From the IMG/VR virus record IMGVR_UViG_3300006141_000001: a DNA stretch of 64,000 bases; one strand, written 5' to 3'. Each line of letters starts with the position of its first letter. Within the stretch, counting starts at the first letter, position 1. Position numbers and translations under genes: made by a program. Source of the DNA: a virus. Shown one piece after another: positions 4,371-29,027 of this stretch. The notes beneath the pieces were generated by a model. That model was not told where the DNA came from. It ran no database searches and saw only the letters and a list, made by a program, of their open reading frames with translations.

Positions 4371-4418
4371 TGCCATAGTTTATATACTCCAAATAAAAAT
4401 CGAACATTTATTATAACC

Positions 4419-5159
4419 TTACATAAAGTACTTACACTTTTCCAAATAGAACTGCTGCTCTTTTCCAAACAGACTTTTCAACTTTTTCAAAGATTTTTCT
4501 TCTCTATATTCTTTCAAAGCCTCCAAATATTCGTTTCTTTTTACATCTTCAACCACAACAGGTACAATACTATTCTTTAGACATTCTCTGAAAAGAATCA
4601 GCCTGCCTGTTCTACCATTTCCATCCTGAAACGGATGAATGCTTTCGTATCTAGCATGAAACTCAGCCAATACAGAAATATTTATATCCTGATTATTATA
4701 CCACTCCATAAGTAAATACATCTCATGTGTCACATTTTCTGGTCTTACAGTCTGATACATGCCAATCATATTAGGACGCTTCTTATAATCACCAATAGCA
4801 TATCCATTGGCACGATCTTCAAATACTCCAGATTTCAACTCATAATGGAATCGTTTTATCAGTTCCTGCGATAATGCCTTATCCAACGTATCCAACATCT
4901 TATTAAACATAAGAAAATGCCCATTCATTTCCTCAACATCCTTCGCCCTATAATAATCGTTAGATTTTGGCAAAGTTCCATTATCAAACAAAGAAGCTGT
5001 TTGTTCCTCCGTAAGTGTACTTCCCTCAATTTTATTTGAATTATAGGCAAGTAAACGCTGCGTATATGCATATACGCCAGATCGGTCAAACTTCTCTCTT
5101 TCTATTTTAAATCTTTCTAAAAGGAAATCTAAAAAATCTTTATTTGTAGGATTGCTCAT
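4419..5159 (-). CDS. Fic-domain protein (class II-like, auto-inhibited)
   Basis: HPFQDGNGRTGR catalytic motif; N-terminal SNKIEG matches the (S/T)xxxE(G/N) inhibitory motif. Confidence 0.9.
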   Translation of the reverse strand: MSNPTNKDFLDFLLERFKIEREKFDRSGVYAYTQRLLAYNSNKIEGSTLTEEQTASLFDNGTLPKSNDYYRAKDVEEMNGHFLMFNKMLDTLDKALSQELIKRFHYELKSGVFEDRANGYAIGDYKKRPNMIGMYQTVRPENVTHEMYLLMEWYNNQDINISVLAEFHARYESIHPFQDGNGRTGRLILFRECLKNSIVPVVVEDVKRNEYLEALKEYREEKSLKKLKSLFGKEQQFYLEKCKYFM

Positions 5160-5185
5160 GTCAACACCTCACATATATTATTAAT

Positions 5186-5717
5186 TATCCAAGTTCCCGA
5201 ATCATTTTCTTTACTCGTTCAATCTCATCATTTGTATGTGGTGTTCCGCCAGAATTCATATCCACATACCATTGTAATACTTCTTTTTCTGTTTTCAAAT
5301 CATTTACATTACTGCATCAGTAATATTTATTCTATCCTCATATTCAGAGAAATAAGATCCAAACACTTTGATTTCGTTGTTTATGAATCTCTGTGCTGCA
5401 GTTATTCTTTGTAAACCATCTACACATACATAGTCTTTATATTCACCATCTTTAGGTTGCCTATCACTATGCCAAAATGGATTGTTCAGATAAATTGTAT
5501 TTCCCGATTTTCCTCCTCTAAGATGATATTCTAACCATGCAATCTGTTGATTCTCAGTCCAAACATGTCCACGCTGAAATTCCGGATTCAGTTGCAAACT
5601 CATCTCTTCTATTTCTTCTGCGATGTATTTCACAAGACTTGGAAGAGGGTAACACACATTGTAATTACCATCAGTTGTAAATTGCTTTATATCCTTGAAT
5701 TTTGTTATTTTCTCCAT
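5186..5717 (-). pseudogene. Solo DUF262 (ParB-like/GmrS N-terminal) protein, frame-disrupted near 5310
   Basis: LNPEFQRGHVW and DGLQR motifs; the C-terminus VNDLKTEKEVLQWYVDMNSGG continues in another frame. Confidence 0.7.
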
Positions 5718-5864
5718 AATATCACCTCTGATCTACGACTTAAAACTAGATTTTTATTTAATTCAAATACATTTTTAAATCATACCAAAAACCATTTTTC
5801 CCCCAACTTTTGATGTTTTCAATTATTATATCATTTTGAGATAACCATCTCTTAATCTCAATTT

Positions 5865-6218
5865 CTATATTTTTTTCGCCTCTCGATCTGCATGAAGTAT
5901 TTCTAAATAGTATTCATCCATATCACGCTTTTCATAAGATATTCTACCACTATAAGAATAATCAACTTCACTTATATGAAAATTTATTTTTAAAACTTTC
6001 CTATCTGTATATATTCTTTTTCCAAACCAATTTTCTATGTATTCATTTTCAGGAGATACATTTCTAAAAGATTCTTTTATAATATCCACAAATATATTAA
6101 CGACTTTTTTGATATCTTCTTCTCTATACTTATCTTTATCAACTTTCATCTGCTCTACCTTTTCTCTTGATGTCATAATATCTCCTTTTTCATTTATCAT
6201 TTCATCTCGAAAATTCAT
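5865..6218 (-). CDS. Hypothetical protein (probably frameshifted at 3' A run)
   Basis: ORF with RBS; ends in an A7 run. Confidence 0.45.
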   Translation of the reverse strand: MNFRDEMINEKGDIMTSREKVEQMKVDKDKYREEDIKKVVNIFVDIIKESFRNVSPENEYIENWFGKRIYTDRKVLKINFHISEVDYSYSGRISYEKRDMDEYYLEILHADREAKKI

Positions 6219-6495
6219 ACAACCCCCCTTAAAAAAAGCATTTTATTTAACTATAATATTTTCCTTTATAAAATCATCTATAATAGAATTAAATAAAGTT
6301 CTAACTTCCTCAATATCCTCAAGCGATACATTGTCCATTGTATATCATATCATGTATTTTCTACAGTAATTCTAATATTTAATTCTTATCCATACATCTT
6401 CCTCCAATTTATAACATAACTAATTCTTTTACTTTATCTGGATTTATATTCATGTTATCCCCATCCACACATAAAAATAGCTTTCAAAATCTAAT

Positions 6496-6957
6496 CTATT
6501 CTATTCTAATCTCCACAGGTTTTCCAATAATCTTTTCATTAAATAGAGTTTCCGCAATAGAATCCAGATCATCAAAATAATAATCAAACTCATCACTCTG
6601 GAACCCATCTTCTGTATCATTGATATAATAAGTCTGTTCTGTATCTGTTTCTATCGCTAAAACAATACTATCAAAATCTTTTCCTTTTGCATCATCATAA
6701 GCAGAATTGACTTCCTCAATGAAATCATCAACTGTATACCCAGGAGGAATTTCTACATCTCTACAAGAAGAAATTTCAATTGCATAGATGATCCGTTCTC
6801 CATCACCTCTTCTCTCAACAGCATCCGCCCGAAGATCATTTTCATTATTCCACCAACAATAAGATACATTTCCATCTACATCCTCTGTAAGTAAAAAAAA
6901 AGGACTCTCTGGCTGTATAAAAGGTTTTCCACCATCTAATGCTTTAAATTCACTCAT
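6496..6957 (-). CDS. Hypothetical acidic phage protein
   Basis: 153-aa ORF with GGAGG RBS. Confidence 0.6.
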   Translation of the reverse strand: MSEFKALDGGKPFIQPESPFFLLTEDVDGNVSYCWWNNENDLRADAVERRGDGERIIYAIEISSCRDVEIPPGYTVDDFIEEVNSAYDDAKGKDFDSIVLAIETDTEQTYYINDTEDGFQSDEFDYYFDDLDSIAETLFNEKIIGKPVEIRIE

Positions 6958-7031
6958 AATATTTCCTCCAATATTTTCAACAATTACTTCTTCAAATTTA
7001 ACTATAGGGATTGATTATCTCAACCCCTATA

Positions 7032-7295
7032 TCAATCATTATAATGTCCCTTACAAGATTTTACAATAATTTGGTCATCAGAAACCTCATAAATCAAACG
7101 ATTTGCTTCATCTATTCGCCTACTAAATGAACCAGACTTTCCATATTTTAACGGCTCTGGTTTACCTATTCCATGTAATACTCCATCCCGTTCTATACTT
7201 TGCAATAACTGGTTTATCTTCTTTACTATCTTTTTATCCTGAGTCTGCCAATAGAGATATTCACTCCATCCGTCTTCTGCAAAAGTGGTTTTCAT
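7032..7295 (-). CDS. yoeB: Txe/YoeB family toxin
   Basis: WSEYLYWQTQDKK...GIGKPEPLK...SRRIDEANRLIY...SCKGHY. Confidence 0.95.
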   Translation of the reverse strand: MKTTFAEDGWSEYLYWQTQDKKIVKKINQLLQSIERDGVLHGIGKPEPLKYGKSGSFSRRIDEANRLIYEVSDDQIIVKSCKGHYND

Positions 7296-7298
7296 AGA

Positions 7299-7556
7299 CT
7301 ATTCCTCCATTGCCAGAAGTTCATCCATAGTTTTTGTTACCACCTGACCGTTTTTAATCTGCTCATCTGCCCTATTCAATTTTTCCAAATACTCAGCATT
7401 CTTCTTAGCTTTTGCTAATTCGTTATATTCTGCCTCTGAAATAATAACAACATTTTTGTTCTCTTTACGGGAAACAATCACCGGCTCCCCATCAAATGCC
7501 ATATCAAAATATTTTTTTATATTTGCCCTTACATCCATCTGTTTTGTTGCAATCAT
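7299..7556 (-). CDS. yefM: Phd/YefM family antitoxin
   Basis: VRANIKKYFD...EPVIVSRKENKNVVIISEAEYNEL, directly upstream of yoeB. Confidence 0.92.
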   Translation of the reverse strand: MIATKQMDVRANIKKYFDMAFDGEPVIVSRKENKNVVIISEAEYNELAKAKKNAEYLEKLNRADEQIKNGQVVTKTMDELLAMEE

Positions 7557-7570
7557 AACACACCTCTTTC

Positions 7571-7632
7571 TGTACTTAAAACCGTACTGTTTATTGTACT
7601 TATATTATATGCTGTTATTATACACAAGTCAA
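7571..7632 (-). promoter_or_regulatory. Sigma-A promoter and TGTAC-type operator of yefM-yoeB
   Basis: TTGACT-17-TATAAT on the minus strand (7632-7604); three GTAC-core repeats at 7571-7600. Confidence 0.8.
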
Positions 7633-7638
7633 CAGAAT

Positions 7639-7854
7639 TTATGAGCTAAAATCGCTTTCATAATAACTGCATGGAGCTTCACACTCTCCTGATGATGTAG
7701 CAGCCGGATTTTTACCACATAATCCATTATTCCTCATATGTCTACATCCCTCTTTTCTTTTCCCTAAATTGCGAGAATTACAATTATTACAATGATATGA
7801 TTTTTCTTTTTCATCATATCTAATATCCATATTACCACAATCCAAACAAATCAT
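7639..7854 (-). CDS. Small Cys-rich (zinc-ribbon) protein
   Basis: CxxC...CxxC; GGAGG RBS. Confidence 0.55.
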   Translation of the reverse strand: MICLDCGNMDIRYDEKEKSYHCNNCNSRNLGKRKEGCRHMRNNGLCGKNPAATSSGECEAPCSYYESDFSS

Positions 7855-7888
7855 AATTTACCTCCACTTGAAAGCAACAATTCATTGC

Positions 7889-8353
7889 CTATTTTAATTC
7901 ATAAAACGCTACACATTCTGGGTTTTCAGTTAAATCATTATTGATCACTATTTTTTCTTTATATACATAATGCTTTTCATCCAATTTAATAATTCTTACC
8001 CTGTGATATTCTCCACCAGGAGCATCAGAATAATATGATTCATATCCAGCACTATCCTCTATAATTTCACCATTTCTAAATAATTCGTCCGATGTAATAC
8101 TTTTATCTACTTCATCAAGTATTTCTTGAAAAGACTTACTATCAGCAGAATATCCGCCCAAAATTTTTACACTCTTAACTCCTATTTCTTCATTAGCATT
8201 AACCTGTTCTTTTCTTTCAATATTCCAAACAGAATATCTATTTTCTCTGAATAACTGAATAGCCCTTACTATATCATCAGATATACAAATTCCAGAAAAT
8301 AAGGAACCTGTGTTACCATCAATACCATTTACTTCATATATATGTTTAATCAT
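7889..8353 (-). CDS. Hypothetical phage protein
   Basis: 154-aa ORF with GGAGG RBS. Confidence 0.6.
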   Translation of the reverse strand: MIKHIYEVNGIDGNTGSLFSGICISDDIVRAIQLFRENRYSVWNIERKEQVNANEEIGVKSVKILGGYSADSKSFQEILDEVDKSITSDELFRNGEIIEDSAGYESYYSDAPGGEYHRVRIIKLDEKHYVYKEKIVINNDLTENPECVAFYELK

Positions 8354-8842
8354 TCTTATTCCTCCAAATTTCTAATTACGCTACTTTCCTTCTTCTCTTA
8401 ACATTTCTGATTTTCCACATTTTCCTTTCAGGAATATAACACCCTCCCCATAATACGGTAGGATCAGAAATAGTTATCAATTTCTCCCAGTTACAGTCAT
8501 AGCACTCAATATCATCAGGAACCTCAGCTTCCCAACACGGAACTTTGTGTTTAAGGTGATTCAGTGATTGATTGCTCTTGTGTCCGTCTACAAAACACTA
8601 GATGCCATATCTTAAGTCTTCTAAGTATTCTTTATAGAAAGCAACCTTTTGTTCATGAATACGCTGGATTTCATATCTTAAAAACTCAGGCCTCTATATT
8701 AAATTCGCCAGAAAGATGATACTGGATATGTTCGGCGTGATGTGCCTGCTCCTGTGGTTCAAATGCTGCTACTGAATATCGGATAATCTTCATAAACATT
8801 CCTCTTTTAAAACAATATTAACCCCTTTACACTTTTTCAAAA

Positions 8843-9175
8843 TTATGCCTTTACAAATGCTAAATTTTCTAAATCTGGCTTGATACTTTCCCACGCTTCC
8901 ATTACAGCCTCTTTCAACTTATCTTCACCAACAAATTCTATGTATTTTTCTTTAACATATTGTTCACGTCCTTTTTGATCTAATTGTCTATACTCATATC
9001 TGTCCCTAATCGTTGTGGATAAATATGTATATTTCCGCTGTCTTGAAGTCTTATATCCTATATCGACAATTTGCCAAATATTATTATTTTGATAGCCATA
9101 TCCTACCTGCAAATCTACCACAATAATAATATCTTGGTTATTCTCTGTTCTATACTTTAAAGCATCTATCCTCAT
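8843..9175 (-). CDS. Hypothetical phage protein
   Basis: 110-aa ORF with RBS. Confidence 0.6.
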   Translation of the reverse strand: MRIDALKYRTENNQDIIIVVDLQVGYGYQNNNIWQIVDIGYKTSRQRKYTYLSTTIRDRYEYRQLDQKGREQYVKEKYIEFVGEDKLKEAVMEAWESIKPDLENLAFVKA

Positions 9176-9211
9176 ACATTATCCTCCATTTTTTGCTATG
9201 AAGACCAGATT

Positions 9212-9490
9212 TTAATGTTTATTTATATTCAAAATCTCTTCCGCTGTCCTTCTCTCAAATTCAGACCATCTAAATTCTTCTGTCGAAAAATCGCTCTCAA
9301 CAGAATCATCATAAACATCTATTTCTGCGTCTTTATATAACTTTTCGATTGCTTTAATTATTTTATTTTTGTCAGACATAAATTCAAACTTATCTGGATT
9401 TTCTTTTATATAATCTAATACTTTTTGACCATCTTCATCTGATAACGAGCATGTATAATACACAGTTGCTACTGCTTCAATCTTAAACAT
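9212..9490 (-). CDS. Hypothetical phage protein
   Basis: 92-aa ORF with GGAGGTG RBS. Confidence 0.6.
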   Translation of the reverse strand: MFKIEAVATVYYTCSLSDEDGQKVLDYIKENPDKFEFMSDKNKIIKAIEKLYKDAEIDVYDDSVESDFSTEEFRWSEFERRTAEEILNINKH

Positions 9491-9621
9491 ATCTCTTCAC
9501 CTCCATTAACACCTCCATTAATGAATTCATCCCAAGTATAATATTAATTAAACACATCTTGCCTCCGCTTAAAATAATATTTTATCTACTAAATTCAACT
9601 AGATTTCCATTGTATTGTATT

Positions 9622-10087: not shown

Positions 10088-10108
10088 TTTATCACCTCAA
10101 CCATTATC

Positions 10109-10792: not shown

Positions 10793-10824
10793 AATTTTCT
10801 CCTCTCAATGAAAATCGAAATTCG

Positions 10825-11330: not shown

Positions 11331-11339
11331 ACTTTAAAA

Positions 11340-11522: not shown

Positions 11523-11566
11523 ACTTTTCTCTCCTCTCTATCAGTTGAAATCAAGTTTTCAGCTAT

Positions 11567-12388
11567 CTATTCCATACTGTTCAATTTCTTTTCTATTTCT
11601 GATAAATGTGATTCATCCATAGATTTTCCAGTCCTATTAAGCATCAAGAAATATTTCAAAACTGTCTTTTTATCTGTTTCACTTACTTCTGCGACAGATA
11701 CTTGATGTTCTACAAAAGCCATTTTATCCATTCTACTTAAATCATTAAAATATTTTCCTTTATATGACAATTTGTTTTCATAAAATTCAATCAATGTACT
11801 TAAACGCTGTTTGCCATCAAGTATTTCATAACTTAAACCTCTTTCATACCACTCTTCATCAGATAAATGTATTAGAACAAATTTCCCAATGTCAATATTT
11901 TTAAATATACTGTCTAATAAAAGTTCCTTATCTGTCTCATCCCAAACATATCCTCTTTGATAATCTGGATCAAAGTCTATTCCAAAACCATATTTTTTAG
12001 ACAGCAAACCTTCTATTGAAGAACTATAATAATTTAACCTAACATCTTGATTTTCAGAAAAATTAGTATCTATAGATCCATTTATAGGTCTTACTTCTAT
12101 CCACGGAACAACTCTACATGTTTCATAATCATATGGATTGCCATAACTGTTATTTGTTGCTAAACACTTCAAAACATAAACTTTTCCATCAAACAAAACT
12201 TCTTCAACGATGCTGTCCTTGAAAGATCCAAAACTTACTTTATCACCTACGTCAAAAAAATATGATGGAGTATTAAGATGTATAATTTTTCTTTTTATAT
12301 TCTTTAATTCATTCTCTTTTTCCATTTGTAATCTATCTTCTTGAGATAATTCCTTTTTCTTCGACATTTTTGTATTCTCCATGCTCAC
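11567..12388 (-). CDS. DUF262 domain protein with N-terminal extension, no HNH domain
   Basis: DFDPDYQRGYVW, LLDSI, EILDGKQRLSTL, YFLMLNRTGKSM. Confidence 0.8.
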   Translation of the reverse strand: MSMENTKMSKKKELSQEDRLQMEKENELKNIKRKIIHLNTPSYFFDVGDKVSFGSFKDSIVEEVLFDGKVYVLKCLATNNSYGNPYDYETCRVVPWIEVRPINGSIDTNFSENQDVRLNYYSSSIEGLLSKKYGFGIDFDPDYQRGYVWDETDKELLLDSIFKNIDIGKFVLIHLSDEEWYERGLSYEILDGKQRLSTLIEFYENKLSYKGKYFNDLSRMDKMAFVEHQVSVAEVSETDKKTVLKYFLMLNRTGKSMDESHLSEIEKKLNSME

Positions 12389-12742
12389 ATAAATAACTAT
12401 ACAGAAATTCCCTCTGAAATTGTGTGATTGCCAAATTCAGCCGGATAAAATATTCCATCCAGAAACAGTCCTCCGTGCCTTGTTTAACATCAATGATCTT
12501 GTTTCCAGAAATTCTTTTTCTTCCTTGGATTACAGCTCAAGCGTCATCACAACATTGTTGCAAAATAGTTTTCATAAAAACACCTCATTTCTTCTTGCGC
12601 TTTTCCAAGTATTCTGTTATACCAATCCATCCAGCACATACAATAACCTCCCAAAATCCCAAGTGTTAGGATAATCAACAATAAACATTAGCAATCCGCT
12701 TAATGCGATTAAAGAAAGCCAGCCTTATAATTCCAGGCTTTA

Positions 12743-13132
12743 TCACACTAGATATCCCTCCCTTACAACTTCAAACTCTACCCATTTTAAGAATTTCTTA
12801 AAATCGTAGAGGTTTTCAAAAACATATTCCTCGATTTCGTCATTGAAATAATCAGCACCAGTATAGGCAATTATTTCTTCATCACAACCACTTTCTCCCC
12901 TCACATCATAACAAAGTTGATTGTCTGGATTTCTAAGATAACTATGGGTAATTCCGTTTTCGTGATTATCGGATTCCATTATAGCGACAATTTCAAGTCC
13001 GTCCTCAAAATTCTCAATACACCATTTATCACATTCCCCATACAAATACCTTTGTTCTTCTTCTGAGAGTAAATTGATTTGTTGGATTTGTTCAGCAATT
13101 TTTTCTTTGCTCATTCTATCAATCCTCCGCAC
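12743..13132 (-). CDS. Hypothetical phage protein
   Basis: 129-aa ORF. Confidence 0.55.
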   Translation of the reverse strand: MRRIDRMSKEKIAEQIQQINLLSEEEQRYLYGECDKWCIENFEDGLEIVAIMESDNHENGITHSYLRNPDNQLCYDVRGESGCDEEIIAYTGADYFNDEIEEYVFENLYDFKKFLKWVEFEVVREGYLV

Positions 13133-13392
13133 AATTCTACTCTTGTTTTGTACATTTCCAAACTAATATTCCCAGCGCAACGCTCACACAAATGAAGTCC
13201 GAGAGTACGGCAGTTAATATCATTAAATGGATAGCATAATTCAGCTTTCCAAGCCTATAATATTCCCTTTCGATTCCAAAAATATCTTTCTTCTTAACCT
13301 TCGGAATTTCTTCTCCGCAACAATCGCAGATAATTGTTTCTATCTTCATTTCCCTATCCTCTCCTTACCACATTGGCAGATGCTTCAAAGAA

Positions 13393-13623
13393 TCAATCAT
13401 CTTTTCCCACATGAAATACCCAATACAGAAATTGAGCAACATAGAAAAGCGGATTCAGCACAAGCATAATCAAAAATAACACCACACACGCAAACATATT
13501 CATGTCGTTACATTCGTATATTTCTTTTGGCGTAACAGCAACATTGTTGAAATCTTTGATTGTGCCAAAAAACATCCCTGCAGCAATACAAGTATAAATT
13601 CTTAAAAATAATTTTATTTCCAT
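13393..13623 (-). CDS. Small membrane protein
   Basis: Two hydrophobic segments; likely start MEIKLF after an AAAGG RBS. Confidence 0.5.
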   Translation of the reverse strand: MEIKLFLRIYTCIAAGMFFGTIKDFNNVAVTPKEIYECNDMNMFACVVLFLIMLVLNPLFYVAQFLYWVFHVGKDD

Positions 13624-13652
13624 TTCTTTTCCCTTTCTATCACATATCCGTT

Positions 13653-14060
13653 TTAATATTTCCACCTCAACCGCCGCCGCAGGAAGGTATAGCAATAATA
13701 CCTGTCGCTATCCATACAGTGATCAAACTCCTTTATAACAGCGTCCTCCGGGCTTTCCATATCCCAGGAATACAGTCCATACTCATTTATGGTTGCCTCA
13801 CACTCTTTGTAATAGCTGATAATTCCTCTGTTCAGGAATGTAGTCTGCACACGTATGCCGTCAAGAACATCATTTTCCGCGCCCTTTGCAATGTATTTCC
13901 CGTGCTTCTTGATTGTTTCAATAAACGAAGCTGCGGACGGGTCAACGATTACAAAAGACACTTTCTTGTCGCCTATCAGTTTACACAATTCCTGATAATG
14001 CGTTTCATCATCACGCCTTACCCCAGTTTCGCGGCTGTCATAGTAATATTCGTACTCCAT
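13653..14060 (-). pseudogene. C-terminal (nuclease) fragment of a PBSX-type terminase large subunit
   Basis: EYYYDSRE, IVDPSAASFI, AENDVLDGI, KEFDHCMDSDRY; ATPase half absent; higher GC. Confidence 0.75.
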
Positions 14061-14064
14061 TTGT

Positions 14065-14240
14065 GCGTGCCGCCCATTCCTGGAGACGGCATTGCTCAGC
14101 CACCACGGTTGTTTCTGAACTCATAGACTTACCTCCGTATGTCGGTATCAAAAGTTGAGACTTAACTTTTAATACCCGTAATAGAAATATAGTCTATTAT
14201 CACACACTTTTTCCCTATGGTCGAGGTACACATTATCTAC
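14065..14240 (-). mobile_element. Truncated IS66 left end with 5' fragment of tnpA (orf1)
   Basis: GGAGGT RBS plus MSSETTVVAEQCRLQEWAA (ATG at 14124) resembles Firmicutes IS66 TnpA N-termini; GTAGATAATG candidate IR at 14240. Confidence 0.5.
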
Positions 14241-14413
14241 CGGTTCTTTCCATCGTTAGTTGAAGTTATTTTGATAAAGTGCCATTTTACTGCGTAAATA
14301 TGGATAAGAAGTAGAGGAAAATATGGAGTAATACTTTAAAATCAACAAAGTTTGGAAAGAACCTATCTACCGTTTACCCTTCGGAGTTGTTGCGTGATAT
14401 AATTTCATTTCAT

Positions 14414-14797
14414 TTAATCAACCTCCTTTGGAATTTCCTCTAAATACAATTCATTCTCTTTCAACATTTGCAATGCCATTATCTGCTGTTCCGTCAGATT
14501 GTCACATTGAATGAAATTCTCCCAGACCGCACAAGCACCACTTATTTTGCAAAGCCATGTCATAAGATCAAAATAGTATTCCTGTGGACACATGGCATTT
14601 AATTCTTCCCTTGTGATATTCAGTTTTTTGCAGGCAAAACTTATCAGTTTTTCTTGATGTGACGGAACAGCGTACATTATCTTTCCGCTTTCATCAATCA
14701 CCACTTCAAGATAATGAATAAAGGTTTTCTTGTGTTGTTCCATGTCAAAGTCGGAATATACGGTATATGCCATTCCATCAACCTCCCATAAAATCAA
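14414..14797 (-). CDS. Hypothetical phage protein
   Basis: 127-aa ORF; likely true start at 14773 (MAYTV) after GGAGG. Confidence 0.6.
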   Translation of the reverse strand: MILWEVDGMAYTVYSDFDMEQHKKTFIHYLEVVIDESGKIMYAVPSHQEKLISFACKKLNITREELNAMCPQEYYFDLMTWLCKISGACAVWENFIQCDNLTEQQIMALQMLKENELYLEEIPKEVD

Positions 14798-14853
14798 ATA
14801 AATTCATCCGCGCCATTTCCCTGTTAAGTCATATTTTGGGCAAGTTTTTAAAT

Positions 14854-15858
14854 TTACATATATGCAAGTTTTTCTCTTATACCATATCCACCATCAACAT
14901 ATGTATTTATTGTTATGTTTTGGCTTTTATGCCCTAACTGCTGTTGCGCAAATGCCGCATCAAATTCCTTCGTAGCAACCGTTCCATACCAGTGCCTCAT
15001 CATATGTGGCTTAATTTTTCCTTTTCCATACACTTTAAATATATTATAAATATCAGACTCACTAATTCTATTTCCTGTTTTTGTAAGGAACACGGCGTTT
15101 TTATCAACGATATTATCCCTAGAATCCCTTATTCCAAGCCATTTCACAAATGCATCTTTTGCTGTTTTTGTAAGCAATACATTCCTGGCATATTCCATAT
15201 TATATACACCTTTCCCCATAATACGTATGAACGGAGCAGATTCATACTCATCACCGTCTAAGAATAAACATGATAATTCCAATTCTTTCAGTTCACACTC
15301 CCTTATTCCCGTTTCTTTTAAAATTGTCAGGATCAACAGATTTCTGTCCCTCACAAAAACATCTTTCCTCTTTTTCCTCTTTATATTTTCTTCCATTTCT
15401 TTTATGTCATTTTCTGTGGGCATCTTTGTATACCTGTTGTTATTTGAAGCCACACCATCATATGCCACATCTACAATGATGTTATTTTCCACAGGAATAT
15501 TTGGAGAGATTACCATATATTTCCAAAAGCTTCTAAAAATGTTTTTCCTTGTGTTCAAAGTTGTTGGAGATATTCCATTCCCCTGGCTTTCCTTTAAATA
15601 CATGTTTACATAAGCTGCTTCAATAAATTGCATATCAGACGGCTCTATATCAGAAATGGTGTTTTTTTTAATTATACCTTTATCAATAAACCATTGCAGT
15701 AGACTATTTATCACACCAAAATATTTTAATGCTCCTAATTGGCTTTTCCTATTCAAAAGATACAGTTGAATAAATAACGGCGTATTATTCTCTTCTATTT
15801 TTTTCATCAGCTTCTCTTCATTTTTTTTCTGTTCAATGTCTTTATAACACATAAACAT
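14854..15858 (-). CDS. Tyrosine recombinase/integrase (Xer-like)
   Basis: TGIRECEL (R), IMGKG (K), HMMRH, QLGH, TINTYV (Y). Confidence 0.92.
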   Translation of the reverse strand: MFMCYKDIEQKKNEEKLMKKIEENNTPLFIQLYLLNRKSQLGALKYFGVINSLLQWFIDKGIIKKNTISDIEPSDMQFIEAAYVNMYLKESQGNGISPTTLNTRKNIFRSFWKYMVISPNIPVENNIIVDVAYDGVASNNNRYTKMPTENDIKEMEENIKRKKRKDVFVRDRNLLILTILKETGIRECELKELELSCLFLDGDEYESAPFIRIMGKGVYNMEYARNVLLTKTAKDAFVKWLGIRDSRDNIVDKNAVFLTKTGNRISESDIYNIFKVYGKGKIKPHMMRHWYGTVATKEFDAAFAQQQLGHKSQNITINTYVDGGYGIREKLAYM

Positions 15859-16339: not shown

Positions 16340-17217
16340 TTATTTATCAAAAAATTCATTGTAACTTTTCTCTAATTCTTTAAGCCTTATCTTTATTTTC
16401 GCATTTTTCCCAGTACCATCTCTACCAGCCGCTTTATTGTATTCTTCCGATTTTGTTGCTGCTCCTTTAGGATTGAACATGCTAATGAACCATTCTTCCA
16501 TTTCTTTATCTGAACGGCCATCTTCTATAGACTTATTCATAATAGGAACCAGGCTTACAAAATGCGTCTTTTGGTACAACCTTCTCGCTGTAGCTTTATC
16601 CTCAACCAGACCATAAACATTATACATCCTATCAAATATTTCAGAAATTTCTTTCTCTTCCTCTTCTGTAACTTCAGTATTTTTTTGTACTTATTCATCC
16701 ATGAAGAATCAACACAAACATCATCTGTGTGCAAAATTGCGTGTGCCCTTTCCCAGTCCATTTCATCTTTTATGGATATTATAATATTCGCCTCACGGAT
16801 AACCTTCTGCACAACTTCTGGCAATTCACTGAAAAGCATTCCATTAATATCAATGCCACCTTCATTTCCATCCTCATCCTTAGTTGGAATTAGTCCAAGT
16901 CCTTCCAATGCAAACTTGTCATTCAGGAACTCACAAAACGTAATTGCTCGTTGTTTTCCATCAATCCCATCATATTTTCCATCTGTTTTATTAAAGTAAA
17001 GCGGTGGAATGAAATTATTTAAAATAGCAGATTGCACTAGTAGAGATTTCTGTTCATTATCATTCCATACATATTTTCTTTGGATATCAATATCAAAATC
17101 AACTTCTTTATCATCCATTTTGCCAACAAGCTTCTCGATTGTCCAATTCATCATTGTAGGTTCCGATCCTCTGTCTATTTTGTATTTAGCCATATCTTTA
17201 TTCCTCCATCTAATCAT
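16340..17217 (-). pseudogene. DUF262 domain protein, disrupted
   Basis: DIDIQRKYVW, IPPLYF, DGIDGKQR; the C-terminus continues in another frame (16340-16627). Confidence 0.65.
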
Positions 17218-18429: not shown

Positions 18430-18753
18430 TTACTGTTCCTCCCAAAATTTGATCTCATCTTCATCCATTACTTCTTCTAAGTAAGATACAATTTGTCCTT
18501 TTTTATTGATCGTAATCAAATATCTGTGAATTTCTCCTTCTGGATTCTTATAACAAAAAGAATCTTTCCTTAATTCTGGATCTCCAACACGTTCAATAGC
18601 CTGTTTGTTTAAAAATTCCTGTGCTGATACTTCACTATCAAACCAAAATGTTTCATCAATATCTTTTAAATGAATACTGATAACTTCATCATTTTCTCCA
18701 TGTACAAATCCTTCCACAAACTTTTGTATGCGCTTATCTATCAAAAATACCAT
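18430..18753 (-). CDS. Hypothetical phage protein
   Basis: GGGAGG RBS. Confidence 0.55.
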   Translation of the reverse strand: MVFLIDKRIQKFVEGFVHGENDEVISIHLKDIDETFWFDSEVSAQEFLNKQAIERVGDPELRKDSFCYKNPEGEIHRYLITINKKGQIVSYLEEVMDEDEIKFWEEQ

Positions 18754-18824
18754 TCATATACCTCCCAAGGAAATAATCCTTTCAAATTCTTTACAATTTT
18801 TCAGAAAATCCAGTTTCCACATCC

Positions 18825-19476: not shown

Positions 19477-20145
19477 TCAATGTCTATTCTGAATCTTTTT
19501 AACTTCTATGACAGACACTTCATAAGCCACTCTATGCTTTACTTCTGTCTCTGAAAGCTTTTTCACATATTCCCTGCTCTGAATCCTGCCATTTACCTGC
19601 ACATGCCCGCCAACCTCAAAGCCTGAGGCATATCTGGCATTCCTTCCCCAGCAAATGCATGGTATGTAATCGGATTTCCCATAAGATCGGTTCACGGCAA
19701 TCAGCAAATCCGCAATCTCCCTTCCCAGAGGCGTCTTGCGGTATATCGGCTCTTTGCAGATATAGCCATCCAGGAAAATCTGATTGCTCTTATCCCCTTC
19801 GGGAACCTCATCTACAAATTCTAGCTCTCTTACAAATACAGAAAGCACCAGGCGGTTTCGCTTTTCTTCATGCCTGTTGTAGGAACGGAACTGCCCGTCT
19901 ACTCGGATATAGCGGCCAATGTAACTCTTCTGGACATCAATCAGACGCTCTGAAACCATTATCGGAATCGTGTCCGCAAAATTACTGAGGCGGTTTACAG
20001 ATACCTCTGCCATATGAAACCTTTCCCCGAAAACTTCGTGGCTGTACTGAAATTCTGAAACGATTTCACCTATAATGGTTACCCAGTTGTTTTCCATCTT
20101 GCACTCCGCTTTCTTTCCCGTTTTGTTTTCTACTTTTTTGTCCAT
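19477..20145 (-). CDS. ssb: Single-stranded DNA-binding protein, clostridial double-OB type
   Basis: SHEVFGE, GQFRSYN, YRKTPLGREIADLLIAVNRSYGKSDYIPCICWGRNA, GRIQSREY. Confidence 0.92.
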   Translation of the reverse strand: MDKKVENKTGKKAECKMENNWVTIIGEIVSEFQYSHEVFGERFHMAEVSVNRLSNFADTIPIMVSERLIDVQKSYIGRYIRVDGQFRSYNRHEEKRNRLVLSVFVRELEFVDEVPEGDKSNQIFLDGYICKEPIYRKTPLGREIADLLIAVNRSYGKSDYIPCICWGRNARYASGFEVGGHVQVNGRIQSREYVKKLSETEVKHRVAYEVSVIEVKKIQNRH

Positions 20146-20870: not shown

Positions 20871-20937
20871 TTTCACTTTTGATTTCCTCCATTCTTAATA
20901 ATTATATCACTATCATTCAACAGATGAAATGCGAATT

Positions 20938-21243
20938 TTATTTCACATTTTCTACAATATCTTTCCACCCATCTTTACTCCAAAATATAGAACCATCATT
21001 ATTGTAAGACAGTTCTATACCTCTTTTGCTAAAAAACTCTTCCAAAACTTTATAAAATTCCTCTGTAAGATTAATGATTGAGCTTTGAATAAACATATCA
21101 TTTGATGGAATAACTTTACACTGTCCATTTCCACACATTCCACTCTCATACTTCAATTTGAAACTACAATTCAAATTTTCCAAAGTTTGATTAAAAACTA
21201 TTACCATATCTTCTTTTATCTTCATGATATTTCCTCCAATCAC
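20938..21243 (-). CDS. Hypothetical phage protein
   Basis: ORF with GGAGG RBS (start likely 21225). Confidence 0.55.
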   Translation of the reverse strand: MIGGNIMKIKEDMVIVFNQTLENLNCSFKLKYESGMCGNGQCKVIPSNDMFIQSSIINLTEEFYKVLEEFFSKRGIELSYNNDGSIFWSKDGWKDIVENVK

Positions 21244-21858: not shown

Positions 21859-22044
21859 TTATCTATCTAAACAAACTTTTACACGTTTTTCACAACAAAT
21901 CCAATTATTAACAATTTCTTTTTCAATTTCTTCTGGTATATCCCATTTATCATTACATTGACACACTGTAGTCTTTCTATCCTTTTCTGTTATCCAGATT
22001 TTAAAACATCCATCAATATGTTTCATCAATTCTTCTACTGTCAT
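21859..22044 (-). CDS. Hypothetical phage protein
   Basis: GGAGG RBS. Confidence 0.5.
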   Translation of the reverse strand: MTVEELMKHIDGCFKIWITEKDRKTTVCQCNDKWDIPEEIEKEIVNNWICCEKRVKVCLDR

Positions 22045-22085
22045 AGATTTCCCTCCAATCCATAAATTGAAATGAAATACAAGTT

Positions 22086-22448
22086 TTAAGGTATCTTTCC
22101 TTCTGCAAATTCTTCATAATGTACAACGATGTAATAATAAACAATATCATTAAAAAATTGCTTTGCACCTTCTCCAAGAAATTCCATAGTAGGAATTACA
22201 TAATCCCTATCCCACATTCTATAAAACAGATCTCCTAATTCTTCTCTGTATTTATACAAAAGTCCTTCATAATCAATATCTGTACGGCTAATATCATCTT
22301 CCAAAATTTCCTCTGCCATTTCCAAAATATAGTCCCTTCGTTCCTCATGGTCTTCCGTTTCTACTTCTATTGGAATATTATTATAGATACAAGATGCAAA
22401 ATTCTTTAATGTGGTATCATTTTCAATCATTTTTGTCCCATAAGGCAT
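22086..22448 (-). CDS. Hypothetical acidic protein (5' end possibly disrupted)
   Basis: 120-aa ORF with no clear RBS. Confidence 0.45.
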   Translation of the reverse strand: MPYGTKMIENDTTLKNFASCIYNNIPIEVETEDHEERRDYILEMAEEILEDDISRTDIDYEGLLYKYREELGDLFYRMWDRDYVIPTMEFLGEGAKQFFNDIVYYYIVVHYEEFAEGKIP

Positions 22449-23308: not shown

Positions 23309-23410
23309 AATATGTCCTCCTTTTATTTATTCGCCTACTTATGTTATACGATTTTTTCCACAAAACAGCAGGTATGGCATTTAATCCACACCTGCTTTAT
23401 TTCTGATACA

Positions 23411-24496: not shown

Positions 24497-24636
24497 GCCA
24501 ATTTCCTTTCTATCCCCTAATTTTTATCCTGTATATTTTATTATCGTCTTCTCTGTGTTTAATATTATCTTATTCTCTGTAATTATTACCACATTTTAGC
24601 GCTTTTTTGATAACACCTTCTAACTGACTATAAACA

Positions 24637-24867
24637 TCATTCTTCTATTTCAAATTCACTCATTTCTATGAAAGCATCAGGAGAAATAGTAAATACCCGG
24701 CGCAAATAATCATTTCCACCGTCAACAGAACAACGGCCACATTTGCAACTCACATAATTGTGGGTACGTCTTGAAACAATAACATCACCACAATAATTGC
24801 ATTTTATTGAATTTTTCTTTATTCTTTCCATGATACGCCACTCCCATCTACATTTAATAATACGCAA
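24637..24867 (-). CDS. Small zinc-binding phage protein
   Basis: IKCNYCGDVIVS...CKCGRCSVDGG. Confidence 0.7.
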   Translation of the reverse strand: MRIIKCRWEWRIMERIKKNSIKCNYCGDVIVSRRTHNYVSCKCGRCSVDGGNDYLRRVFTISPDAFIEMSEFEIEE

Positions 24868-24892
24868 TTTTATGTATGTTTCTCATTTCTTT

Positions 24893-25222
24893 CTATTCAA
24901 AATTTTCTAACGTACAACCATTGCCTTTCATTTCCCTTGGAATAATTTCTTCTGGATAAACACTTGCAATAGACCCATCTTCAAATTTAATATTCCACAT
25001 AGGAAGTGAAGATAAATCACTATTTTCATTTGTACACCTTCCTACAACTTCAAAACTTTCCCCTTCCTTATCCTTATGGTCTCCAAAAGGACTCCAGAAT
25101 TTCTTTGAAAACCCTTCGTTCTCATAGCATGAAAAACAATCATTTACAAATTGCTTTTCTCTTTCTTCTGTCATATTCTCTCTATCTTCTGGGTATTTTA
25201 CTCTCATATCTTCCCACATCAT
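24893..25222 (-). CDS. Hypothetical phage protein
   Basis: GGAGGT RBS. Confidence 0.6.
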   Translation of the reverse strand: MMWEDMRVKYPEDRENMTEEREKQFVNDCFSCYENEGFSKKFWSPFGDHKDKEGESFEVVGRCTNENSDLSSLPMWNIKFEDGSIASVYPEEIIPREMKGNGCTLENFE

Positions 25223-25235
25223 AATTATACCTCCG

Positions 25236-25918
25236 TTATTTTGCTGATGTTTCTATACTTCTTGACATAGCTACATTTTTCCCAACCTTCACTCCTTCTG
25301 ATTTTGCTAAATCCCCTCTATTGTTCACCTTCACTTTAAAACTGGCATTAAACCTATGAAATTTTGATGTTCTGTCTTTATATTTTTTTCTACTTCTTCT
25401 GGGATTACTACCATAAGTGCTGTACATTGTTTCTCTAACACTTCTTTTATGCCTAAAAGAAAACCATTTAAAAAAGCATTTTTTATACCTCTCCCATCAA
25501 AGCACCTACCATGGTTTATATATTCTTGTCTCTGCTTTTGGTAATACTTTACAGATTCTCTATTCCCAACCCTAAAAAGCATATCAAAACTCATTGCTGC
25601 TATTTTTGCATCCTTTTCATACCCATAAAATACAATACAGCTTTTCCCAATACAAAAATACTTGCATCTAAAATTTTTAGCTACTATTCCAGATAGCGTA
25701 TATTTCCACTTATTCCCTGTTCCTACATCAATTTTTTCTTCCACGATATCTTCAACATTTTCAATTTCATCAATCTCTGCCATAGTTATACGATATTTTA
25801 CCATTAATTCTTGTGCTTTAAGGGCAGCACTTTCTGCTTCCTCTATAGATGGGTTATTTTTTGATAATGCCAATACTTTCTTAATTTTTCTATTATTTTT
25901 TCGCTCGAATCATTTTTC
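25236..25918 (-). pseudogene. DUF2786 domain protein, frameshifted
   Basis: KIKKVLALS...EEAESAALKAQELMVKY; frame breaks at A runs at both ends. Confidence 0.65.
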
Positions 25919-25934
25919 ATAATATTTCTCCTTT

Positions 25935-26165
25935 TTATCCTCTAATCATTTCAAAATCATCCATTTCTTTCTGTGTTAATTCTCTATCATAATATATTTC
26001 TGCCCATACTTTATACCCATTCACTTCTTCCCTGGTATCATAATTGATAAAATCCATCATGCCCTTTTCCGGATGTGTTCCAATAGATACTGGGCGCATA
26101 GTGGAATAGTATTTGCTCCAATGATATTTCTGTGCTGATTGTCTAATATAATCATTAGTACTCAT
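25935..26165 (-). CDS. Small protein resembling DarA C-terminal-like domain
   Basis: YYSTMRPVSIGTHP...YYDRELTQKEMDDFEM pattern, recalled from polyvalent-protein domains. Confidence 0.5.
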   Translation of the reverse strand: MSTNDYIRQSAQKYHWSKYYSTMRPVSIGTHPEKGMMDFINYDTREEVNGYKVWAEIYYDRELTQKEMDDFEMIRG

Positions 26166-26274
26166 AAATTTTCCTTTCTAATTCAATTCTACATATTTAT
26201 TCCAATTCCATAAATACAAAACATCGTGTATAATCTACACGATGCTTTGTTTCTACCATATATTAATAATCCTA

Positions 26275-26511
26275 TTAAACCTTTATCCCATAACCTTTTA
26301 TTTCATCAATCCTACAAGACACTTCTTCCTTTGTCCGTTTCCATTCTTCTTTTCTCATACAAGATTCAACAGTAGGAACATGTGCGATTCTTTGAGTTCC
26401 CTTGCCACTTAATTTCATAGACCACAACGCACTTGCTATATCCATCATGTTTCCATAACCTATGCTTTCTCCAACTTCTTTCACAGCTATAATTTCTTGT
26501 TGCCTCAGCAT
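26275..26511 (-). CDS. Hypothetical phage protein
   Basis: GGAGG RBS. Confidence 0.55.
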   Translation of the reverse strand: MLRQQEIIAVKEVGESIGYGNMMDIASALWSMKLSGKGTQRIAHVPTVESCMRKEEWKRTKEEVSCRIDEIKGYGIKV

Positions 26512-26664
26512 AACTACTCCTCCATTTTATATCAAAAAACTACAAACACTTTTCTCTTTCAGGCATCCAATTTGGATACATCCACAATATATAGTATAGT
26601 TATTTTTTTACCACAATATATTGTATTTTTCTACCAATGAAAGGGCAATTTCATTATTAAATTA

Positions 26665-27378
26665 TCATTCTTTTACTTCAATAACTTCCCCATTAACCAT
26701 TGTATACCATGTATCAGGTTTGATTTTATCTCCATCAACTCGAACCATTTTTGCACCTTTTAAATTCCATTCACTTTGTTTCCAATAATGATTTTCATTT
26801 CCTTCCCAATCCGCCAACACAAGGAATGAATCTAAAACACCTTTCACTTTCCCATGGTATCCCCACGCAACTGCAATAGAACAAGGATCTTTTGCCTCAG
26901 ACGATCCCTTATATCCTATAGCACTTGAAGCCCCATAATCGCCTGTAGCACTTGAAGCCCCCCAATTTCCTGTAGCACTTGAAGCCCCCCAATTTCCTGT
27001 AGCACTTGAAGCCCCATAATTTCCTGTAGCACTTGAAGCCCCATAATCGCTATTTGAATCGCTTTCTGGATACACCCTTTCTTTTGTGTATTCAATAGCT
27101 GCCTTTACTAATCCTACAATAGAAAGTCTTGCCCCAATCTTGATTTTACTTGACGCAACTTTCGTATCATTATTATTTTTTGACACATCACCACTCTGTT
27201 CTACCTCGTGATATACAGAATTACTTGGAATATAATACCTAAAGCAATCCAATGGGTACTCACAGGCGTGAAATCCTGTTTCACAAACAATCGCTCTATC
27301 TTCTTCGTACTCTTTCCCTTCTTTATACTGAAGTCCTCTGCATGTCATATCTTTTTTAAACCCTTTAAATGCTTTCAT
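26665..27378 (-). CDS. Phage protein with GASSATG nonapeptide repeats (DUF7666-like)
   Basis: KAFKGF..DMTCRG.QY...GFHACEYPLDCF; repeat block; VDGDKIKPDTWY. Confidence 0.75.
   Translation of the reverse strand: MKAFKGFKKDMTCRGLQYKEGKEYEEDRAIVCETGFHACEYPLDCFRYYIPSNSVYHEVEQSGDVSKNNNDTKVASSKIKIGARLSIVGLVKAAIEYTKERVYPESDSNSDYGASSATGNYGASSATGNWGASSATGNWGASSATGDYGASSAIGYKGSSEAKDPCSIAVAWGYHGKVKGVLDSFLVLADWEGNENHYWKQSEWNLKGAKMVRVDGDKIKPDTWYTMVNGEVIEVKE
26915..27049. repeat. Five in-frame 27-bp tandem repeats
   Basis: cctgtagcacttgaagcccc(c/a)... units encoding xYGASSATG/xWGASSATG. Confidence 0.9.
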
Positions 27379-27735
27379 CTTTTATCCTCCATATTTTTCT
27401 AAAAATTTTTATTTTTGAAGCAACAAATACTTAAAAACATCTTCCTCATTTTTTCTAACTCATTCTCTGGTATAGTTCCTATGTTTTCAAATTCCTTTAA
27501 CTGTTTAAGTAATACCCTTAACTCTTCATCCATTTTATTATTAAACAAATTTTTTATTTAATCATATATCCTTTCTTAATTATATCTTAGCCAAAAAAAT
27601 CCATTATTTTCTCGAATATCCAGATTGAAACTTTTATAAAGCACAATAATAGTAAAGCAAGGCCAAACGGAAGCAATCCTCCAATAAAAAATTTTATAAC
27701 CTCAAAATATACACCAAACATATTATTCCTTTTCT

Positions 27736-28023
27736 TCATAATGTTAATAAACACATGACCTCTCTAATCATTCCCTTTATTGTCCTTCTATTCTTTCTTC
27801 TTTCATATTCAATTTTCTTCATTCGTTGCCTTTTCATCTTATCCAGGAAAGCAAGTGACTCATGTACTACCATGTATTCTTGTTTCATTTCAAGGTTAAG
27901 TGAATCTACAGATGTCCTGATTTTCCTGTCGATAATCTGCGTTCCATCATTTTGTTCAATTATTTTGAAATCAAAACATACTGGTTCCGAATTGCTGACT
28001 CCGCTATAAATAATATCTATCAT
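27736..28023 (-). CDS. Hypothetical phage protein
   Basis: GGGAGG RBS. Confidence 0.55.
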   Translation of the reverse strand: MIDIIYSGVSNSEPVCFDFKIIEQNDGTQIIDRKIRTSVDSLNLEMKQEYMVVHESLAFLDKMKRQRMKKIEYERRKNRRTIKGMIREVMCLLTL

Positions 28024-28040
28024 TTATTTATACCTCCCTC

Positions 28041-28400
28041 CTATAATCCCATTAAATCTTCCGCAACACTTATATTAAAGGTTTCTTCAAACCAGTGCCA
28101 AATGTCCTCTCGATGCGTCCCTGCCGAAAAACCGTTCCACTCAATTTCAATTTCTTCTGTGTCTGGATTTATTGGGGTATTTCCAAATTCTTCCCATAAC
28201 TTTCTTATGTACGTTTCTTTCCAAAAACTCAAAACTTTCCCATAACCCCTACCTTTAATAACTGCTATATCGTCAGAGCCAAGAACATAACCACAATTTT
28301 CACAATATGTTTGAATTGTCGTATATTCTGCTTCTTCAAATTCCTGATCGTTTTCTATCTGATCTAATTTATTTTTTTCTAAATATTTTCTAAGTGACAT
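28041..28400 (-). CDS. Hypothetical phage protein
   Basis: LWEEFGN...GTHREDIWHWFEE. Confidence 0.6.
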   Translation of the reverse strand: MSLRKYLEKNKLDQIENDQEFEEAEYTTIQTYCENCGYVLGSDDIAVIKGRGYGKVLSFWKETYIRKLWEEFGNTPINPDTEEIEIEWNGFSAGTHREDIWHWFEETFNISVAEDLMGL

Positions 28401-28434
28401 AATACTTCCCTCCGTTCCTGATCAAATTGTGTTT

Positions 28435-28698
28435 TTATTGTTTTACATACTGATATATTTCTTCCAATTTTCCAAGTGCATTATCAATTCTTTGTTTGGT
28501 TGAATCATATATTCTTACAAATTCATCAAGATTAATTTCTTCTAGGCACTCAATAAAGGCGTGATATTTTCCAATTCCATGTTCAATGTTTAAATATTCA
28601 GTAATTTTCCTTGTTCCATTTACCTTTTGCAAAGTATCAATACTTGAATCAATGTCAAACACAAGCTTTAAAATATGGTCTATTAAAAATTTTTCCAT
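28435..28698 (-). CDS. Hypothetical phage protein
   Basis: Bounded by two junction motifs. Confidence 0.55.
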   Translation of the reverse strand: MEKFLIDHILKLVFDIDSSIDTLQKVNGTRKITEYLNIEHGIGKYHAFIECLEEINLDEFVRIYDSTKQRIDNALGKLEEIYQYVKQ

Positions 28699-28733
28699 GT
28701 GTTATTCCTCACTTTCCAATTAAAATCATTATT

Positions 28734-29027
28734 TCATTCCATAACTTTCAATGCATCGTCAAGAGTTTCATACTGATTTTTTACATTGGCATTTTCATTG
28801 AATCCGTTTAACACATGCAAGAAAGCCCTCTCAGCGTTTATATATCTTCTGCCTATTGTTTCATTAGAATTACATTTCTTTCCATTAATAGAAAAACTAA
28901 AAGGACTATAAATAAGTTCCTCTTTTCTAAGAACTAATTCCCAGTCTTTATACTTAAAGATAACAACTTGTCCTTCTTCCCAGGTTTTACAATTTTTTAA
29001 AACTTCAATAATAAAAGCCTTATTCAT
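28734..29027 (-). CDS. Hypothetical phage protein
   Basis: GGAGG RBS. Confidence 0.55.
   Translation of the reverse strand: MNKAFIIEVLKNCKTWEEGQVVIFKYKDWELVLRKEELIYSPFSFSINGKKCNSNETIGRRYINAERAFLHVLNGFNENANVKNQYETLDDALKVME

Follow-up and report, generated by a model that had tools for sequence, protein, structure and literature searches.

A recurrent dyad motif with position-specific cores at gene junctions and mosaic breakpoints of SPbeta-like phages

Phage genomes are mosaic, and whether special sequences direct the exchange of their modules has been debated since the modular theory, most boundaries being without any such sequence. Short "linkers" at module boundaries have reportedly been proposed to direct exchange, both in the modular theory of Botstein in 1980 and by Clark et al. 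in 2001 for the boundary sequences of lambdoid phages. Here we describe a 16-bp inverted repeat, TRAAA-N6-TTTYA, which recurs at gene junctions of a 64,000-nucleotide stretch of viral DNA (IMG/VR record IMGVR_UViG_3300006141_000001, hereafter the window) the source of which is a large phage of low GC content with a gut Firmicute as host. The promoter-early stem-loop (PeSL) cassettes of T4-type phages likewise have short repeats between small non-essential early genes in plastic regions (Arbiol et al. 2010, PMC2839356), and PeSL bound insertions, deletions and replacements between relatives (PMC2839356), as the motif does. The motif is enriched over background, has dyad symmetry without covariation of its arms, contains 6-bp cores that are conserved position by position, and coincides at its edges with breakpoints between related genomes. 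The reading that we favour, and to which we give an even chance, is that W-TRAAA-N6-TTTYA-W is a dyad DNA site bound by a protein, the conserved 16–18 bp of which also act as a homology anchor for module exchange.

The minus-strand arm of the window, from 4 to 33 kb, contains about 60 small genes, all running in the same, leftward direction. The first-pass annotation was correct in describing every gene of this arm as co-oriented, and the seven strict matches that it had reported were verified at 5741, 6230, 11546, 20925, 22073, 26638 and 28721. In the entire window there are 10 strict matches, compared with 3.58 ± 1.84 in dinucleotide shuffles (none of 100 shuffles reached 10), and nine of the 10 lie within 4–29 kb. 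The intergenic gaps of the arm hold seven matches versus 0.25 in shuffles with the stop codons kept, and a spacing scan of the arm, which is composition-matched by construction since only the spacer length is changed, peaked at N6 with nine matches against 0 to 7 for the other spacings, so that enrichment over a composition-matched background is present in shuffles and spacing scan alike. Of the 42 gaps that measure 10 nt or more, 12 hold a strict or near copy. On the coding strand these sites lie directly after the upstream stop codon or overlap it, 0 to 15 nt before the next GGAGG, and at 9212, 20938, 22086, 28435 and 28734 the upstream gene does take its stop codon from the right arm (plus strand), as had been noticed; the motif is a genuine feature of gene junctions, lying between one gene's stop codon and the ribosome-binding site that follows. 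The strict matches at 5977 and 23201 (inside open reading frames, ORFs) and at 40658 (in the other arm) are probably due to chance.

The near matches initially listed fared unevenly: those at 7869, 9199 and 28422 are N6 junction sites with one mismatch, whereas those at 6472 and 9570 (N5), 7647 (N4) and 4394 (at least two mismatches) have another geometry, and the one at 10809 holds by its core and not by its arms. A further junction site with one mismatch, at 18769, had been overlooked. The copies in the arm, to which no strand is assigned, are as follows.

5741–5756: strict copy in the gap before gene 5304–5717 (minus strand); the core ATCTAG/TTCTAG is also found at junctions of relatives.
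6230–6245: strict copy immediately 5' of the Shine–Dalgarno (SD) sequence of gene 5865–6218.
7869–7884: one-mismatch copy (TGAAT arm) with core TGTTGC, before gene 7639–7854; crisp breakpoint at 7885.
9199–9214: one-mismatch copy, an arm of which is the stop codon of gene 9212–9490.
10809–10824: decayed copy with two mismatches in one arm; the core TTCGAT is retained, as in full sites of relatives.
11546–11561: strict copy with core ACTTGA, after the GmrSD_N gene.
18769–18784: one-mismatch copy with core GGATTA, before gene 18430–18753; the same core stands at junctions of four relatives, with unrelated flanks.
20925–20940: strict copy, an arm of which is the stop codon of gene 20938–21243; the identical 16-mer is found in L052 with unrelated flanks.
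22073–22088: strict copy, an arm of which is the stop codon of gene 22086–22448; it precedes gene 21859–22044.
26638–26653: strict copy after gene 26665–27378.
28422–28437: one-mismatch copy, an arm of which is the stop codon of gene 28435–28698; the same core occurs in L056.
28721–28736: strict copy, an arm of which is the stop codon of gene 28734–29027.

The motif is enriched in each of the related gut phages that were examined. The whole records G001–G005 contain 18–29 copies each versus about 3–7, and a reversed-pattern control in the same records gave 0–3 matches per strand against 9–20 for the motif itself. Loci found via two arm proteins share the N6 peak, with 58 copies at N6 and 5–17 at other spacings (19 loci summed); nineteen metagenome loci hold 64 copies versus about 10, and a 176-kb human-gut phage (MT835469.1) has 50 versus 1–18 at other spacings. 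Across the window, G005 and G003, 58 of the 64 strict sites are intergenic and six fall in ORFs, and 39 of the 64 lie at most 40 nt before a start codon, typically 11–36 nt. An unexpected finding was that Bacillus phage SPbeta carries 36 copies (0–10 at other spacings), and its relatives phi3T, Goe14, SPbetaL8 and SPbetaL4 carry 34–45. The SPbeta form is nearly always a-TAAAA-N6-TTTTA-w, and its sites, mostly in the early arms, follow stop codons or lie in 5' leaders and at the ends of operons. Bacillus phage Chewbecca (18 copies versus about 4.5) and Clostridium phage c-st (37 versus about 15) are also enriched, and no enrichment was found in Lactococcus LW81, Enterococcus 9183 (Ef9183) and Staphylococcus SEP9. 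Since the B. subtilis phages SPP1, phi105 and SPO1 contain 0, 0 and 1 copies, respectively, a generic host signal is ruled out; the motif is a lineage trait of SPbeta-like phages, attributable neither to the host nor to base composition. It is undescribed in the SPbeta literature covered (PMC8270828, PMC10516654, bioRxiv 10.1101/2021.11.22.469490, 10.1101/2025.11.27.690993 and 10.1101/2020.05.06.055103), a scope outside which the original 1999 genome paper falls. In a group of phages with a GC content of 47% (L002–L011), the word TGAAAGGCTGATTTTA is found at one junction (e.g. L002:5594, L003:7856, L004:7649, L008:6467) with four different combinations of upstream and downstream genes, and overlaps the stop codon, the SD and sometimes the next ATG.

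The six bases between the arms are not a free spacer, and each junction has its own conserved "address". Among the gut phages, identical 16-mers stand beside different neighbours: the core TCCGGT occurs at eight sites in at least six contexts, and TCATCG, TGATTG and TTCGAT occur in three to four contexts each. After the same GmrSD_N gene, the core ACTTGA of the window is retained in relatives upstream of at least four different genes. Five SPbeta-family genomes contain 255 pairs of sites with the same core, compared with 3.5 expected, and the flanks are conserved on both sides in 75 of these pairs, on one side in 92 and on neither side in 88. Each relative has 23–27 of the 36 SPbeta cores, in an order that is perfectly collinear (tau 1.00), and a genome of this family never uses a core twice. 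Core columns are 97–100% identical in orthologous DNA of the family that is about 92% identical elsewhere. At the position of a single copy in SPbeta, SPbetaL4 (OQ921344.1, about 88.7 kb) has two abutting head-to-tail copies of one and the same motif (core TAGGAA), an arrangement that an emptied cassette or a crossover at the level of the arm may have left behind.

The ends of homologous blocks coincide with the motif. In the SPbeta family, blocks that are at least 88% identical have 743 ends, of which 84 are located in motif windows, these windows amounting to 0.6% of the DNA. After base-by-base refinement 89 of the 383 crisp breakpoints are at the motif; their density there is 14.6 per kb, and it drops to 1.37 per kb in the remaining non-coding DNA and to 0.21 per kb within ORFs. 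Blocks tend to start at motif offsets –2 to 0 and to end at +15 to +18; at such breakpoints the entire motif, including its core, is shared and one flank is unrelated, a split between an arm and a differing core accounting for only about 10% of motif breakpoints. For example, SPbeta 83687–86899 is 100% identical to phi3T and SPbeta 86072–86907 is 100% identical to Goe14, each block having copies of the motif at both of its ends. The divergent gut records by themselves allowed too coarse a mapping of breakpoints, and the pattern became clear only with the SPbeta family; in the gut clade 22 of 190 breakpoints lie in 0.9% of the sequence, at the same offsets. A block common to the window, G001, L049 and L052 begins exactly at site 7869, and a block of 98% identity between G001 and G005 ends at motif arms on either side. 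The expectation that breakpoints of gene gain and loss would fall at the motif is thus borne out in two clades, the SPbeta family and the gut clade. Gene order is collinear between the window and L015. The shuffled cassette array suggested at first is not supported: genes keep their order, and it is alternative modules that replace one another, at fixed and collinear sites.

The symmetry of the motif was examined in 171 non-redundant SD-linked sites. At positions 2 and 15 the combinations A–T, G–C, A–C and G–T occur 35, 59, 38 and 39 times, respectively (Fisher p = 0.35), and no pair of columns, inner or outer, is Watson–Crick paired above the expectation from column frequencies. The column frequencies are nevertheless mirrored, in that G at position 2 (98 sites) is matched by C at position 15 (97 sites), W stands at either side and the edges of the core are Y/R. 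Because symmetry is present in the population of sites without covariation at individual sites, these data argue for duplex DNA with two equivalent half-sites and a symmetric protein as reader, rather than for a hairpin.

Taken together, we propose that a conserved double-stranded DNA element would punctuate the gene junctions of the accessory-gene arms in SPbeta-like phages, its common arms being most likely the two half-sites for a symmetric, dimeric DNA-binding protein encoded by the phage, putatively an HU-like YonN homologue, a small Cro/C1-type helix-turn-helix (HTH) protein or a recombinase. The junction-specific 6-bp core would be maintained by selection. The resulting islands of 16–18 bp would then be the sole sequence in common between otherwise unrelated alternative genes and, for that reason, could serve as crossover points at which related phages exchange modules with gene order retained. 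Both the binding of a protein and exchange through identity of the whole site, that is, short-homology recombination, are predictions from sequence comparison. The operator that the first-pass annotation had offered as an alternative stays a full candidate, and a protein-binding site ranks first.

Several points weigh against this proposal. Breakpoints were counted per genome and are not independent events, genes were called crudely (about 80% coding), and junctions that have no motif contain many breakpoints too. The motif is present at merely 20–30% or so of the junctions, which is unexplained for a regulatory site, and 16–18 bp are short for homologous recombination. Furthermore, laboratory hybrids between phi3Ts and SPbeta change parent inside long homologous tracts and not resolvably at the motif. 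As a trial of the motif the hybrid MT366947.1 is uninformative, because its parental switches fall within such tracts. A 16-mer common to SPbeta and phi3T appears to adjoin the one published "non-homologous" junction of the hybrids, "following yosA".

Three proteins of the window were considered as possible binders or enzymes. The rightward arm carries replication genes and an SPbeta-like set, in which homologues of YonJ, HU/YonN and the YomM-like recombinase were confirmed.

14854–15858, minus strand: Xer-like tyrosine recombinase in the leftward arm (Pfam Phage_integrase, 3e-17).
59644–59964, plus strand: HU-like protein, homologue of SPbeta YonN (Pfam Bac_DNA_binding, 1.9e-16).
60925–61965, plus strand: YomM-like tyrosine recombinase, conserved in SPbeta-like phages and a poor candidate binder.

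The product of 14854–15858, put forward earlier as the enzyme acting on the motif, has its best PDB match with XerH and its best NCBIfam matches with XerC and XerS, all far below cut-off, and contains the residues R, K, HxxR, H and Y. A tyrosine recombinase with intact catalytic residues is present upstream of the GmrSD_N gene in the window and in G001–G004, and relatives have two different recombinase subfamilies at this position. No SPbeta orthologue was detectable for the arm recombinase, though SPbeta has 36 sites, and comparison with YopP, YopR and YomM gave no meaningful similarity. Its proposed role is not supported: no link to the motif was found, SPbeta has no detectable orthologue and the subfamily differs among relatives. 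The YomM-like recombinase is a poor candidate because it also occurs in LW81, Ef9183 and SEP9, none of which is enriched for the motif; no recombinase family tracks the motif across genomes. In LW81, Chewbecca and Staphylococcus SPbeta-like 2 (L069, L070 and L071) the YomM-like recombinase gene lies directly before the tape-measure gene, an adjacency seen in several families of large siphophages, virulent ones included. The HU-like YonN co-occurs perfectly with motif enrichment in seven complete genomes; since HU genes are widespread in phages, this carries little weight, and YonN is kept only as a lead. A search with the HU protein of the window itself gave no match.

The most serious rival, which we regard as rather unlikely, is that the motif copies are dedicated site-specific sites, a phage tyrosine recombinase binding the arms and exchanging strands across the 6-bp core, with identical cores required. 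Each core would then be a heterospecific junction address, and cassettes would be swapped without scrambling their order, a natural counterpart of recombinase-mediated cassette exchange. As the first-pass annotation had pointed out, inverted arms around a 6-bp core would fit the geometry of tyrosine-recombinase core sites, and the cores are position-specific, unique in each genome and common between genomes despite differing flanks. Breakpoints at the arm edges, gut-clade arm variants that stay with their own flank around a shared core, and the Xer-like recombinases with catalytic residues in the arm of the window and of G001–G004 also fit, and the arms of XerH and XerS sites end in GAAAA beside the central region (PMC5357621). 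On the other hand, the motif has 5–7 informative bp per arm versus 9–13 bp in known core sites, and difH reads TGAAA-N8-TTTCA in the notation of the motif, not N6. Nor does any single recombinase family follow the motif, the arm recombinase having no orthologue in SPbeta and the YomM-like one being found in the non-enriched LW81, Ef9183 and SEP9. The rival also does not require the core selection that is seen in long-undisturbed orthologous DNA, and about 10% of motif breakpoints do lie between an arm and a differing core. Its fuller form, which we rank behind it and hold to be unlikely, is that SPbeta-like phages carry a natural cassette-exchange system of 30–50 lox-like sites per genome, all with the same type of arms and each junction with a 6-bp core of its own, at which a phage recombinase would let co-infecting or resident relatives swap accessory, largely anti-defence modules at matching addresses, with order kept.

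It is improbable that the motif is purely regulatory, a "stoperator"-type operator, with the breakpoints a mere side effect of random illegitimate recombination followed by selection of intact junctions. Its location and dyad would suit an operator, and breakpoints are common at junctions devoid of the motif as well. In the 434 operator central bases tune affinity, and a conserved core would fit such tuning. Random breaks, however, should scatter over the gap, and the observed ends pile up at –2..0 and +15..+18; moreover, an identical core is retained where both flanks are unrelated.

Less probable again is that the motif acts at the level of the polycistronic mRNA, where it might form a small hairpin, mark a site of processing or assist translation from immediately 5' of the SD. 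Such a role would be in keeping with its position on transcribed DNA 0–25 nt before the SD, also in 5' leaders, and no sigma-70-type promoter or terminator coincides with it (promoter-like sites were not enriched, 85 versus 103 in shuffles). A hairpin was rejected for the lack of covariation and the absence of a match in Rfam: the stem would have just five A-U-rich pairs, and 38 of the 171 sites have an A–C mismatch on the sense strand and 39 on the antisense strand. Mirror-symmetric base frequencies are meaningless for a single-stranded motif, and some SPbeta sites follow the last gene of an operon; the RNA-processing signal offered earlier as an alternative is accordingly disfavoured.

That the motif forms an integron-like array of attC cassettes, or that AT-rich junctions produce it as an accident of composition, is hardly credible, for against the small, co-oriented, unrelated genes, the AT-rich DNA and an arm that starts with a stop codon (TAA or TGA) stand the lack of attC features and of an integron integrase, an enrichment that survives shuffles, spacing controls and reversed-pattern controls, and equally AT-rich phages without the motif.

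The remaining content of the leftward arm can be described briefly. Its products include Fic, three GmrSD_N/DUF262 proteins, a single-stranded DNA-binding protein (SSB), antirepressors, ArdC and the tyrosine recombinase, and a megablast search with this arm against the phage collection gave no match. The three GmrSD_N/DUF262 paralogues are encoded at 5304–5717, 11567–12388 and 16555–17217; the middle one is kept in all relatives, and upstream of it there is always a tyrosine recombinase, of two different subfamilies. Just downstream of the recombinase gene of the window, a fragment of the terminase large subunit (135 aa, 13653–14060; PHROG matches to 7.7e-17) lies in a motif-free stretch of the arm (12389–14800) with long non-coding segments at 12389–12745 and 14061–14416, and this stretch may be a decayed inserted element. 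Transposases of the IS66 family and of the IS200/Y1 type are also present in the window (2595–3866 and 37672–38106). At 32059–32265 (minus strand) a 69-aa Cro/C1-type HTH protein, absent from the ORF list, has an apparent ATT start behind a perfect AGGAGG and might regulate the leftward operon. The gene at 19477–20145 encodes an SSB whose N terminus is extended by about 120 aa, and the product of 26665–27378 is a DUF7666 protein containing a collagen-like repeat.

With regard to the old question of directed module exchange, a considerable part of the boundaries bears one defined word with coded cores, in a family that extends from the B. subtilis phage SPbeta to large phages of Firmicutes in the human gut, and because this family includes the model phage SPbeta the question can be tested by ordinary B. 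subtilis genetics. The motif provides a practical ruler for dividing the long unannotated small-gene arms of gut phages, which are rich in anti-defence-like genes, into exchangeable units, and it points to a putative DNA-binding factor of SPbeta.

Among known systems, integrons likewise have small co-oriented cassettes with recombination sites between them. An attC site, however, measures 57–141 bp, with R''-L''/L'-R' imperfect repeats and a GTTRRRY core, and the head of an integron consists of an IntI-type integrase next to attI and Pc. The sites of the motif measure 16–18 bp and have no further conserved flanks; protein P0001 did not match the integron-integrase models, and the protein of 60925–61965 scored 41 bits with the integron-integrase model, for a cut-off of 265. 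None of the defining features of an integron was found in the motif system, and the integron-like array of the first-pass annotation falls with its 16-bp sites, which are devoid of attC structure, and with the absence of an integron integrase.

In cluster A mycobacteriophages, stoperators (the sites of L5 gp71, attributed to work of Brown et al. in 1997) are said to occur by the dozen in short gaps of co-oriented operons, often overlapping stop codons. They are 13-bp, asymmetric sites, oriented in one way relative to transcription and with a known binder, the immunity repressor, whereas the motif, though located alike, is a dyad with a mirror-symmetric consensus and has a putative binder only. 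The 17-bp dyad repeats of cluster O and the SAS/ESAS of cluster K mycobacteriophages, studied by Cresawn in 2015 and Pope in 2011, are reportedly intergenic and just before starts; their sequence is unrelated to the motif, and we know of no report of a position-specific core or of an association with breakpoints for them.

The sites lox, FRT, dif, XerH difH and XerS difSL are built, like the motif, from inverted arms ending in GAAA(A), around a core of 6–8 bp that needs identity between partners (PMC5357621). The motif has a 6-bp core, but only 5–7 bp per arm carry information, so that its arms are much shorter; its spacing is 2 bp off that of difH, and it has tens of differing cores per genome. 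Likewise, the dif-like sites of XerH and XerS have arms of 10–11 bp such as AGTTATGAAAA and occur as one site beside the xer gene (PMC5357621), and just GAAA is common to them and to the motif with its tens of sites.

Within the same phage family, the SPBRE operators of SroF (MrpR, YopR) are also a repeated element with a reader of recombinase fold. This repressor binds, as a monomer, an asymmetric word of 15–24 bp at about 10 promoters (PMC10516654; bioRxiv 10.1101/2025.11.27.690993). The operator word AAAATATGTATA... differs from the motif, as does AATATGTATA, the word common upstream of nine of the 10 MrpR-bound genes, which is unrelated to it; MrpR/SroF with SPBRE was rejected as an explanation on account of the different word, the small number of promoters and the monomeric binding. 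The promoter of YonO was rejected as well, YonO starting at a single promoter (PMC5467207) and the motif lying mostly in arms transcribed by the host polymerase.

PeSL cassettes combine a sigma-70 promoter with a terminator hairpin; the motif is a 16-bp word with neither, shows no covariation of a hairpin and has a position-specific core. The linkers of the modular theory and of lambdoid phages are reportedly sporadic and share no common motif, in contrast to the single dyad word with coded cores found here, 30–50 times per genome and in phages of distant hosts. The motif is best described as an element of the junction-linker type, the special trait of which is a common dyad combined with position-specific conserved cores, from Bacillus SPbeta to gut phages.

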